From: a virus | Reading direction: 5' to 3' (one strand) | DNA length: 64,000 nucleotides | IMG/VR virus record: IMGVR_UViG_3300050343_000182 | In this document: one piece after another, positions 49,475-58,291 of the stretch | How the letters are laid out: the number at the start of each line of letters is the position of its first letter | Position numbering within the stretch: position 1 is the first letter of the stretch | Notes under the pieces: model-generated | The model's input: the letters and a program-made list of their open reading frames with translations, nothing else | What the model was told of the DNA's origin: nothing | Databases searched by the model: none | Made by a program: the position numbers and the translations under genes

Positions 49475-49634
49475 GGACATTACTATCACACTCAGCAAGG
49501 ACTTACAAGAAGAATTTGAGTCCTATCTTGACTGCTGTGACTCCCTGGACTTTGCTCCAAGGATCAATGCATTCCTAAATTATATTCACAACTACGGTAC
49601 ATGCAAGAATCCAAGGGAGCCAAAATGGGACTGA
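49467..49634 (+). CDS. Small hypothetical protein
   Basis: MSKDITITLSKDLQEEFESYLDCCDSLDFAPRINAFLNY; overlaps nrdA and nrdB. Confidence 0.6.
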   Translation: MSKDITITLSKDLQEEFESYLDCCDSLDFAPRINAFLNYIHNYGTCKNPREPKWD

Positions 49635-50761
49635 CTGTTTTCAACGACAAGAAAGTAGACACCAAAAAACAACCAATGTTTTTCGGAGCTCCCTTGGGGA
49701 TGCAACGATACGATGAATATAAGTATCCTGACTTCGACAAACTAACACAGACACAACTCGGTTACTTCTGGAGACCTGAAGAGGTATCTCTACAGAAGGA
49801 CCGTGCCGATTACAAGACACTGAATGAGCAACAAAAACATATCTACACCAGCAACCTCAAGTATCAGATCCTTCTGGACTCTGTGCAAGGGCGTGGTCCT
49901 GGCATGGCATTCTCACCTTACTGTAGTCTTCCAGAGTTGGAAGGATGCATGGGAGTCTGGGAATTCATGGAGCAGATTCACTCTCGCTCCTATACCCATA
50001 TCATCAAGAACGTATACGCAGACCCATCAGAAGTCTTCGATGCAGTATTAGATAATGAGAAGATCCTTGACCGTGCTACAGCAGTATGCAAAGCATACAA
50101 TGACTTCATTGAGGTAGCAACTGAGTGGTCACTCAGTAACATGTGGAAGGAAGGTTGGAAAGACTCTCCTACTTCACAGTGGACTATCAGAGATGTCAAG
50201 CGTAAACTCTATCTGGCGATTGCTAATGTCAATATCCTTGAAGGAATTCGGTTTTATGTTTCTTTTGCTTGCAGCTTTGCTTTTGGTGAACTTAAACTCA
50301 TGGAAGGTTCTGCAAAAATTATCTCCCTTATTGCCAGGGACGAGTCACAGCACCTCGCATTGACCCAGAAGATCCTCTACAAGTGGAAGAAGGGTGACGA
50401 TCCTGAGATGCAGCAGATCATTCAGGAAGAGGAAGAGACAGTGCGTCAGATGTTCCTTGACGCAGTTGCCCAAGAGAAAGAGTGGGCAAAATATTTGTTT
50501 GAGAATGGTAGTATGATCGGTCTTAACGAGCGTCTGCTTTCTCAATACGTGGAATGGATTGCTAATCGTCGTATGAAAGCAATCGGACTAGCACCCGCCT
50601 TCGATATCCCTGCTAAAAACAATCCTCTGCCTTGGACAGAGCACTGGCTAAATAGCAAGGGTCAACAAAATGCCCCTCAGGAAACTGAGATTGAATCCTA
50701 TGTCGTTGGGGGAATCAAGCAGGATGTTAGTGCGGAAACTTTTAGCGGGTTTAAGCTATAA
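49625..50761 (+). CDS. nrdB: Ribonucleotide reductase class Ia beta subunit
   Basis: FWRPEEVSL, LDSVQGR, EQIHSRSY, ARDESQH, APQETEIESY. Confidence 0.97.
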   Translation: MGLTVFNDKKVDTKKQPMFFGAPLGMQRYDEYKYPDFDKLTQTQLGYFWRPEEVSLQKDRADYKTLNEQQKHIYTSNLKYQILLDSVQGRGPGMAFSPYCSLPELEGCMGVWEFMEQIHSRSYTHIIKNVYADPSEVFDAVLDNEKILDRATAVCKAYNDFIEVATEWSLSNMWKEGWKDSPTSQWTIRDVKRKLYLAIANVNILEGIRFYVSFACSFAFGELKLMEGSAKIISLIARDESQHLALTQKILYKWKKGDDPEMQQIIQEEEETVRQMFLDAVAQEKEWAKYLFENGSMIGLNERLLSQYVEWIANRRMKAIGLAPAFDIPAKNNPLPWTEHWLNSKGQQNAPQETEIESYVVGGIKQDVSAETFSGFKL

Positions 50762-51017
50762 AATTACAACATGGATACGGATACCCAAGGTGTATCCAGA
50801 TACACATCACGATGCCGAGAAGAAATTGGAAGAGACAAGCGAGGTCCCTGTATACAAACGAGACACAATCGACTGGTATTCCGAAAACCCCGATACATGG
50901 TATCAGGGACCACTTATCCTTCTTGAAGAAACTCAAGAAGGACTTAAAGAATACCAAGCCCATTAGTAACACTCCCTACCATCGTCGCAAAAAGAAACGA
51001 AAGAAGTAGGGGGTTGC

Positions 51018-51024
51018 ATAAATA
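51018..51024 (+). promoter_or_regulatory. Late promoter ATAAATA upstream of the riboswitch-like leader
   Basis: Consensus match, followed by the hairpin tgtcatg-ctat-catgaca (51029-51046). Confidence 0.6.
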
Positions 51025-51049
51025 GTAATGTCATGCTATCATGACAACA

Positions 51050-51278
51050 CGTTCATCCCACTCTTGGGTGGGACGCAAGTAAGTCGCGCAACGGAGCGTT
51101 GATCCCATGTTTGAATTACTTCTGTATTCATCACTCACCTGCCAACAAGCTGATACAATCATGCTTAAAATGAAAGCAAATGAGGATCTCTCACATGCTT
51201 TTAAGGTAGAGTTGATAGAGACCGTAAAGGAATCTGTCCCTGAGTGTTATTGGGACGCACACGATTGAAGGAACGGGG
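51050..51278 (+). ncRNA. Tandem/nested Downstream-peptide (glutamine-II riboswitch-like) RNA elements
   Basis: cgttca-tcccac/gtggga-cgcaa...caacgg, then cgttga-tccca...tggga-cgcac...gaacgg; upstream of a YRG-motif peptide. Confidence 0.7.
51107..51268 (+). CDS. 53-aa peptide embedded in the second RNA element (not in ORF track)
   Basis: MFELLLYSSLTCQQADTIMLKMKANEDLSHAFKVELIETVKESVPECYWDAHD. Confidence 0.7.
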   Translation: MFELLLYSSLTCQQADTIMLKMKANEDLSHAFKVELIETVKESVPECYWDAHD

Positions 51279-51308
51279 ATTAAAAACCCTAACTTCGGAG
51301 ACGAACTC

Positions 51309-51476
51309 ATGAACACACTTAACCTCATTCGCAAGCAAATTCACAAGGCATCTGCCTTGCATAACGCACAGATTACTCACACCACATATCGCGGTGTAAA
51401 GTATGACACACGTTGTGTGGAAAGCAAAGAGTCTCACGGGACTTTCTGCTACCGTGGAAAGACCTACAGCAAGTGA
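51309..51476 (+). CDS. DUF4278-like YRG-repeat peptide (not in ORF track)
   Basis: MNTLNLIRKQIHKASALHNAQITHTTYRGVKYDTRCVESKESHGTFCYRGKTYSK; GGAG RBS. Confidence 0.8.
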   Translation: MNTLNLIRKQIHKASALHNAQITHTTYRGVKYDTRCVESKESHGTFCYRGKTYSK

Positions 51477-51483
51477 CCTAAGT

Positions 51484-51507
51484 AAGAGGGGGTAACCCCT
51501 CTTTTTT
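51484..51507 (+). terminator. Rho-independent terminator
   Basis: aagagggg-gtaa-cccctctt followed by tttt. Confidence 0.85.
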
Positions 51508-53019: not shown

Positions 53020-53093
53020 GGTCCAGTAGCTCAGTGGAATAGAGCAACTGCCTTCTAAGCAGTCGGTCGATGGTTCGAATCCATCCTGGATCG
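53020..53093 (+). tRNA. trnR-TCT: tRNA-Arg (anticodon TCT), no encoded CCA
   Basis: Acceptor GGTCCAG/CTGGATC, D-arm AGCTCAGTGGAATAGAGC, anticodon arm actgc-CTTCTAA-gcagt, T-loop GGTTCGAATCC. Confidence 0.95.
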
Positions 53094-58145: not shown

Positions 58146-58171
58146 ATGGACGGTCGTTACACAACGACACA

Positions 58172-58291
58172 CTTGACGCCTCACCAAGACTAAACAGCGT
58201 CATTAAATAACAGTCTTTCATACCTGCTGCTGAGGGTGCAACAGGCATATTATATTAGTGTTTCCCTGCACTCATACCTACCCTAATTTCA
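58172..58291 (+). ncRNA. Structured psbA leader, PhotoRC-II-like
   Basis: cagtctttcatacc...ctgagggtg... directly upstream of phage psbA; recognised from memory of the family. Confidence 0.5.

Follow-up and report, generated by a model that had tools for sequence, protein, structure and literature searches.

Glutamine-sensing RNAs of the Glutamine-I class (RF01739), such as the gifB/IF17 leader of Synechocystis (PMC6212724), are built from a P1 helix CGUUC:GAACG, an A, a P2 hairpin, a CGC strand, an AGUA/GAAG E-loop and a P3 helix, with a gene for a DUF4278-type peptide on the 3' side. They act as translational ON switches by releasing a pairing that blocks the ribosome-binding site, a logic demonstrated experimentally with gifB and with a DUF4278 gene of Prochlorococcus (PMC6212724). 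Glutamine-II RNAs (RF01704) are found in marine picocyanobacteria upstream of DUF4278-like peptides; in the crystal structure, the ligand contacts and base-triple nucleotides are C1, G2, G18, C19, C39, G40 and G41, and C5:G36 is one of only two non-conserved pairs in the ligand-binding helix (PMC6698751). Glycine and glutamine aptamers also occur as tandem doublets, in which two homologous aptamers for one ligand serve one expression platform (PMC9481103). Here we describe an element in a 64,000-nucleotide stretch of viral DNA, IMG/VR record IMGVR_UViG_3300050343_000182 (hereafter, the whole stretch is called the window), that comparison with its relatives identifies as a glutamine riboswitch with a new architecture: two cores are interlocked, not side by side, and one hairpin of the aptamer closes over a small open reading frame (ORF). 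The structure has comparative support, and the regulation proposed below is what we infer from it.

All of the Glutamine-I features listed above recur at this locus, and its ON logic is likely to apply as well. Unlike Glutamine-I, P3 is here capped by a second complete core instead of a small loop, one P2 hairpin (two in some relatives) encloses a gene predicted to be translated, and the stop codon of that gene straddles the P3/E-loop boundary. With Glutamine-II the element shares the ligand-contacting nucleotides, the variable C5:G36 pair and, in its inner core, the lack of an E-loop, but it has no 3' P2 hairpin with a GGAACGG loop, and its CGUUC:GAACG helices are nested instead of forming an H-type pseudoknot. 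Whereas each aptamer of the described tandem doublets folds alone, these cores exchange strands and share P3; the review of tandem riboswitches never uses the word 'nested' (PMC9481103). In the B12 and Mbox leaders of Mycobacterium tuberculosis a small ORF and a riboswitch likewise interact on one leader RNA, but those are upstream ORFs, controlled by the riboswitch via its expression platform and apparently outside the aptamer (PMC11260477, PMC12810186), whereas here the ORF is inside and its ends form an aptamer helix.

A sequence-only reading of the window had named two glutamine-II-like units and two ORFs, and all of these elements sit where it placed them. The parts of the element are as follows, all on the + strand.

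51050-51094, +, unit 1 as read from the sequence: CGTTCA (51050-55), TCCCAC/GTGGGA (51056-73), CGCAAGTA..., GCAACGG (51088-94)
51097-51276, +, unit 2 as read from the sequence: CGTTGA (51097-102), TCCCA (51103-07), TGGGA-CGCAC...GGAACGG (51251-76)
51050-51054, +, strand a, CGUUC, the 5' strand of outer P1, equivalent to C1-C5 of the solved glutamine aptamers
51056-51073, +, H1, the P2 hairpin of the outer core, TCCCAC-tcttgg-GTGGGA, whose four basal pairs all covary across relatives
51074-51088, +, joiner J1: CGC (groove strand of the outer core), A, AGUA, AGUCG and CG, assigned from the RF01739 alignment of ORF-less relatives
51089-51101, +, strands b (CAACG, 51089-93) and c (CGUUG, 51097-101), which pair as the inner-core helix closed by the loop GAG (51094-96)
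51103-51107, +, 5' arm of H2, UCCCA, the last base being the A of the ORF1 ATG
51107-51268, +, ORF1, 53 codons, phrog_504
51251-51255, +, 3' arm of H2, UGGGA, inside the ORF1 codons TGG GAC and pairing with 51103-07 across 143 nucleotides (nt)
51256-51270, +, joiner J2: CGC (groove strand of the inner core), ACA, CGAUU and GAAG, with the ORF1 stop UGA (51266-68) inside it
51271-51276, +, strand d GAACG, the 3' strand of outer P1, plus a G that is the partner in a long-range C:G pair

The pairing of the four strands a to d carries the main finding. Taken one at a time, as the sequence-only reading had pointed out, the units of the window contain a C-C and a G-G mismatch, and pairing across the units is perfect: a (51050-54) pairs with d (51271-75) to form outer P1, and b (51089-93) pairs with c (51097-101) to form the inner helix. 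Our comparative set comprised 135 unique elements from IMG/VR and GenBank phages, 127 of them containing the ORF and 8 lacking it. The a:d helix is Watson-Crick at all five positions in 135 of 135 elements (fifth pair C:G in 126, U:A in 9), and so is b:c, whose outermost pair is G:C in 100 elements and, as in the window, C:G in the other 35. Both the nested fold and the covariation of caacg with cgttg that the earlier reading had proposed to look for are therefore borne out, neither helix being broken in any element. Read together as a5, b1', c5 and d1', the variable positions take the states C,G,C,G (99 elements), C,C,G,G (27, including the window), U,C,G,A (8) and U,G,C,A (1). When d strands other than GAACG were sought specifically, 17 contigs were obtained, all with AAACG and all 17 with CGUUU as strand a; no A or T was found at the swap position of strand b in the scan. 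The nested fold thus fits two exactly compensatory swaps, one in a:d and one in b:c, and the side-by-side fold fits neither.

The more ordinary arrangement would be two side-by-side aptamers, a:b and c:d, acting independently or pseudo-cooperatively, with the second merely long-looped. It is true that all four strands are CGUUC or GAACG in 99 of the 135 elements, so that both pairings can form there, that single units give sub-threshold matches to RF01704, and that a review lists 157 glutamine doublets as pseudo-cooperative (PMC9481103). The a:b and c:d helices, however, are mismatched in 35 and 36 of the 135 elements, respectively, with no compensating change, while the nested pairs never are. 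The two halves of the E-loop and the two strands of P3 moreover lie in different units and can meet only in the nested fold, and where RF01739 scores above threshold it aligns the pair as one nested aptamer. The side-by-side fold was rejected on its uncompensated mismatches, and we consider it very improbable.

A formal count of pairing was made on a 48-sequence MAFFT alignment, with 500 shuffles and a partner-sliding control. In the nested structure 99.3% of cells were paired, as opposed to 91.0% in the shuffles, none of which (0/500) did as well; partners slid along the alignment paired in 29-52% of cells, and 10 pairs of the nested structure showed changes on both sides. The innermost pair of the side-by-side structure was unpaired in 16-17 of 47 sequences, again with no compensation. 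In ViennaRNA the nested core of the window has an energy of -21.7 kcal/mol versus -11.8 kcal/mol for the side-by-side alternative. The window is itself a natural swap mutant of b:c, in which only the nested fold is fully paired.

A subtler possibility is that the RNA alternates between the two topologies wherever the strands allow, with this exchange, and not the anti-Shine-Dalgarno hairpin described below alone, as the regulatory event. Transcription order favors a:b, which can form before c and d exist, and a hairpin of b with c provides unit 1 with a natural anti-aptamer. In its crystals the Glutamine-II RNA is a dimer with exchanged strands, which makes such exchange between cores physically reasonable (PMC6698751). 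Selection nevertheless does not preserve the pairs that such a switch would need, since 36 of the 135 elements, including the window, have weakened side-by-side pairs and no compensating change. We regard topology switching as unlikely.

The interlocked fold can be described as a pseudo-symmetric pair of three-way junctions with a common P3 that is, on the predicted structure, read from opposite ends. From 5' to 3', the outer core consists of a, A51055, H1, CGC-A (CGCA 51074-77), AGUA and the 5' strand of P3, and then of the 3' strand of P3, GAAG, d and G. The inner core, which by this model is located in the P3 loop and circularly closed, has the order c, A, H2, CGC-ACA, P3 entered from the other end, CG, b and G, with b:c capped by the GAG loop. 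The E-loop sets AGUA (51078-81) opposite GAAG (51267-70), one half in each joiner. P3 pairs AGUCG (51082-86) with CGAUU (51262-66), with one G-U pair in the window where the J2 of relatives reads CGACU, and it is paired in 100% of relatives. A second lineage of elements, typified by P-SSM7 (L221 555-800, L230-L349), has an eight-position P3 with J1 AGCCGACU and J2 AGCCGACU or AGUUGACU; it keeps two conserved C-A mismatches in P3, and about 40% of its elements lack an ORF. P3 covaries in this lineage, pair 8 being U:A in 77 and A:U in 21, and pair 5 being G:C in 80, G-U in 15 and A:U in 5.

The positions that contact glutamine or form base triples in the solved structure are all kept in both cores, at C51050, G51051, G51075, C51076, C51274, G51275 and G51276 in the outer core and at C51097, G51098, G51257, C51258, C51092, G51093 and G51094 in the inner core. 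Each core is a putative glutamine-binding site. As to class, the outer core is assigned to the glnA type (Glutamine-I, RF01739) of three-way junction. Two ORF-less relatives, L001 (phage ACG-2014f) and L146, score 41.1 and 42.9 bits against RF01739 (gathering threshold 35), and the model aligns each as a single nested aptamer with P1 formed by a:d, P2 by H1, an E-loop of CGCAAGUA opposite GAAGG, and P3 of AGU...ACU. Strands b and c, H2 and the second CGCA fall in this alignment into a 41-48 nt insert in the P3 loop, H2 being in these relatives a plain hairpin, UCCAG-GAAA-CUGGA. The earlier identification as a glutamine-riboswitch RNA accordingly stands, and its assignment to Glutamine-II does not. 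A pair of Glutamine-II units was rejected as a candidate: RF01704 matches are sub-threshold, the best relative reaching 32.1 bits (gathering threshold 33), and the strands make nested helices, not an H-type pseudoknot with GGAACGG in a 3' hairpin loop.

The second unusual feature is that H2 closes over ORF1. In every one of the 127 unique ORF-containing elements, the four H2 positions nearest the base form standard pairs, and all four covary; when the 3' arms were permuted, at most 110 of 127 elements were intact in 5000 trials. The variants include UCCC/GGGA, CCCC/GGGG, UCCU/AGGA, UCUA/UAGA and GAUU/AAUC, and in extended form GAUUAUGG/CCAUAAUC and UCCCAUGG/CCAUGGGA. Because the 5' arm is non-coding and the 3' arm coding, this covariation, which acts over 140-200 nt, must be at the level of RNA; outer P1 spans 226 nt in the window. 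The sequence-only reading was right that one aptamer hairpin encloses the ORF, and inexact in placing the ORF entirely in the loop, as its ATG begins in the 5' arm and its last six codons leave the loop. These codons, TGG GAC GCA CAC GAT TGA, traverse the H2 3' arm, the conserved CGCA and a P3 strand, with the stop codon straddling the boundary of P3 and E-loop. Synonymous variation is suppressed where the last codons lie, with a position-3 entropy of 0.32 as compared to 1.13 in the body of the ORF. The nested helices, the gene and the conservation of their layout are, in our view, well supported by this comparative evidence.

One might still ask if the insertion of ORF1 destroyed the second aptamer, whose flanks would persist as the ORF1 start region and C-terminal codons, leaving only unit 1, or nothing, to sense glutamine. 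In favor of such a relic, the 3' arm and CGCA do encode protein (WDAxD*), and the GGAG at the b:c loop resembles a Shine-Dalgarno (SD) sequence for ORF1 and is absent from the ORF-less elements. A relic would not explain why a non-coding 5' arm covaries at four positions with a coding 3' arm and is intact in every ORF-containing element, why a and d covary across the ORF, or why synonymous sites are frozen in the overlap, and unrelated-looking ORF variants of 49-66 codons all keep the same frame and stop. We place very little weight on it.

ORF1 itself has the marks of a real gene. It matches phrog_504 over its full length (residues 1-53 of 53, E 3.4e-27), and the median ratio of nonsynonymous to synonymous substitution rates (dN/dS) is 0.20. 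Variability in its body follows codon position 3 > 1 > 2, whereas in the final, aptamer-overlapping codons it is uniformly low across the three positions. Residues C12 and C47 are invariant in 110 ORF1 sequences with identity to the window protein down to 17%, homologues are 49-66 codons long with insert lengths divisible by three, and 162 of 168 homologues share a stop, TGA or TAA, at the same place ten nt into J2. Retrieval by protein similarity, with two divergent queries, found the gene between c and d with H2 intact at 136 of 139 loci with full flanks, and strand variants at the other three. The AlphaFold2 model is a helical hairpin with a mean predicted local distance difference test score (pLDDT) of 79 and no Foldseek match at E <= 0.001; ORF1 had no match in Pfam, and in the protein atlas it matched viral hypothetical proteins only. 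The sequence GGAG at 51093-96 is made up of inner-core G40 and G41 together with the loop; as 105 of 127 ORF-containing elements have it and none of the 8 ORF-less ones does, it is probably the SD sequence of ORF1.

That the region is instead an untranslated, structured RNA spacer finds some encouragement in the placing of the start codon in a stem. The low dN/dS, the inserts in multiples of three, the two invariant cysteines, the PHROG match and the profile homology to a second ORF family described next all argue against it, and we think it most improbable.

This second family lies within the other hairpin. In 25 other contigs (for example L140, L145 and L173) and in phage Syn9 (L220 204-404), H1 also encloses a gene, of 65-75 codons (gp196 in Syn9; phrog_6471), with its ATG in the 5' arm and its stop (TGA, TAA or TAG) in the 3' arm, covarying with the 5' arm. 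Over the core from cysteine to cysteine, this family shows homology to ORF1 (hhalign probability 91.7%, E 7.7e-7). In Syn9, then, gp196 is the gene enclosed by H1, gp197 the one enclosed by H2 and gp198 the peptide gene. The b-c loop also tolerates a large coding insert: in L206 (2256-2831), L208, L213, L214, L216 and L168 it holds a gene for a GIY-YIG-like homing endonuclease (192 aa, phrog_314, E 9e-9), and the conserved aptamer sequence may be the homing site for this enzyme. Homing-endonuclease genes are also housed in peripheral loops of group I introns, where, as here, a long-range helix closes over a coding insert and the RNA core survives. Unlike those, ORF1 is no mobility gene, and the sensor and the platform controlling the next gene incorporate its start and its stop. 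Damaged strands are rare: b is CAACC in L081 and L082, and in L358 d is altered and followed by another CGUUCA unit. These three may be decaying or rearranged copies.

Downstream of d lie the remaining parts of the element.

51293-51298 (part of 51293-51300), +, CUUCGG, the 3' arm of an anti-SD hairpin, complementary to UUGAAG 51265-70 and overlapping the ORF2 SD sequence GGAG (51297-300)
51309-51476, +, ORF2, 55 codons, phrog_545, DUF4278-like
51484-51506, +, intrinsic terminator closing the cassette

A DUF4278-like YRG peptide and a terminator had both been noted from the sequence, and both hold up. ORF2 matches phrog_545 (E 6e-35), carries two YRG motifs, and resembles IF17; its match to Pfam DUF4278 (PF14105; residues 24-54, E 1.2e-4) scores 22.8 bits, below the cut-off of 25.3. 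It is likely a distant DUF4278/IF17-like member, with putative inhibition of glutamine synthetase. UUGAAG at 51265-70 consists of the last two bases of P3 and the E-loop GAAG, and the ORF1 stop lies within it. The anti-SD hairpin and the P3/E-loop are mutually exclusive. The complement is 6/6 in 130 of 135 unique elements, and the variant CUAAAG is always matched by CUUUAG. ViennaRNA energies computed with no ligand are -74.2 kcal/mol for the anti-SD state versus -70.6 kcal/mol for the nested state, a slight advantage for the former. In an accessibility model based on secondary structure, enforcing the nested fold left the ORF2 SD sequence more open in 98 of 107 elements, which supports glutamine-ON control of ORF2. 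Many relatives (Syn9, L220 624-660; L037, L043, L057, L141 and others) have an extra conserved module between d and the ORF2 ribosome site, made of AAACGGAUCC, a hairpin and then GAGAAGGUU..CACCC. It is absent from the window and may be a different or additional expression platform.

We suggest the following mechanism. Glutamine binding would stabilise P1, the E-loop and P3; the stabilised P3/E-loop would pull UUGAAG away from CUUCGG; and the ORF2 SD sequence would thereby be freed, switching on the IF17-like peptide. Ribosomes starting on or crossing ORF1 would have to melt H2, P3 and the E-loop, and for this reason translation of ORF1 and sensing of glutamine should be mutually exclusive on one RNA. 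Glutamine would thus switch ORF2 on, and ORF1 translation would compete with sensing; we commit to no direction for the regulation of ORF1 itself. A more elaborate version, which we put forward tentatively and judge somewhat less than even in likelihood, is a translation-gated two-way switch: with glutamine on both cores the embedded gene or genes would be shut and the IF17-like peptide made, and without it ribosomes would enter the ORF, keep the sensor unfolded, terminate in the E-loop, and reset or couple the next gene. If so, the phage would pick between two protein outputs by host nitrogen status from a single mRNA.

Upstream of P1 are two further features.

51014-51042, +, weak sigma70-type promoter read from the sequence: -35 TTGCAT (51014-19), 17-nt spacer, -10 TATCAT (51037-42)
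51029-51046, +, 7-bp hairpin or palindrome, TGTCATG-ctat-CATGACA, centred on the -10 box and ending 3 nt before P1

Relatives have TTGACA or TTGACT, 17 nt and TATAAT at the same place, with a TAAATA overlapping the -35 box. The arms of the palindrome covary across 133 unique upstream regions, with a 7-bp stem in 84, and the hairpin also appears in the predicted fold of the window. The -35 region overlaps a box like those of T4-type late promoters, CATAAATA at 51017-24 in the window and TTGACTAAATA in relatives; a late transcript would begin just 5' of the hairpin and bear it at its 5' end. This arrangement suggests two RNA isoforms from a dual early/late promoter.

Several points weigh against the explanation as a whole. 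The compensatory swaps probably go back to just two evolutionary events, which descent and recombination then spread; with so few events, and with b and c 8 nt apart, the sequence counts overstate independence. The inner-core long-range C:G pair has just 2-3 nt between G41 and C1, which may pose a steric question. The window element has no Rfam match at gathering threshold in a scan of the whole window. Against RF01704, unit 1 (51047-51100) scores 24.8 bits, below the gathering threshold of 33, and in E-value mode RF01739 gives 15.3 bits, on unit 1 only, failing because the P3-loop insert is 175 nt where H2 encloses ORF1; the covariance-model check that the sequence-only reading had proposed is thus negative for the window and positive for the ORF-less relatives. 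The scan for sigma70 sites found none in the window at its threshold, and the promoter given above is weak. The accessibility model, which treats secondary structure, found no ligand-state difference and no support for glutamine-dependent occlusion at the ORF1 start, so that we make no firm claim of ORF1 being shut off by glutamine. Termination on ORF1 would also bring a ribosome to open the anti-SD hairpin, which could couple ORF2 to ORF1 and blur a simple ON switch. With these points taken into account, we still hold it to be quite probable that the locus is a self-contained phage cassette, with a promoter, an interlocked two-core glutamine riboswitch whose H2 hairpin closes over ORF1, two small genes and a terminator.

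The host replicon is a T4-like cyanomyovirus, with nrdB shortly 5' of the element (49601-50761). No further CGTT.A...AACGG elements were found in a search of the window, where the only Rfam matches at or above gathering threshold are a PhotoRC-II RNA (58162-58258, 49.9 bits, gathering threshold 39) and a tRNA (53020-53093, 69.3 bits). The element occurs also in hundreds of viral contigs. Among 185,579 species-representative genomes the J1 motif matched only 6 contigs (L224-L229), in assemblies labelled Synechococcus, Verrucomicrobiales, Euryarchaeota, Nonlabens and 'uncultured bacterium'; two of these contigs are 188-194 kb long, and all six resemble cyanophage DNA that ended up in cellular assemblies or bins. 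A host origin of the element was rejected accordingly.

Text searches of the searchable literature turned up no published account of a nested two-core doublet or of a glutamine aptamer that contains a gene. In that literature, the glutamine riboswitches of cyanophages are known only as Rfam matches (PMC9964418), and a 2017 survey, which counted only two glutamine aptamers among cyanophage genomes, took riboswitch use by phages to be rare (PMC5473149). The present element, by contrast, is matched by blastn in 413 Synechococcus and Prochlorococcus phage records and yet is missed by standard covariance-model scans. Two cores with one common helix are not listed among the known tandem riboswitches and would offer a natural system for the study of cooperativity. 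The window and its relatives are ready-made compensatory mutants. Riboswitch aptamers are usually regarded as compact domains that do not code for protein; in this element a protein gene is predicted to form part of the aptamer, so that translating ribosomes and ligand sensing would have to compete for the same RNA. Together these features suggest that cyanomyoviruses read the nitrogen status of their hosts to time the making of an IF17-like peptide and of a family of small cysteine-containing proteins.

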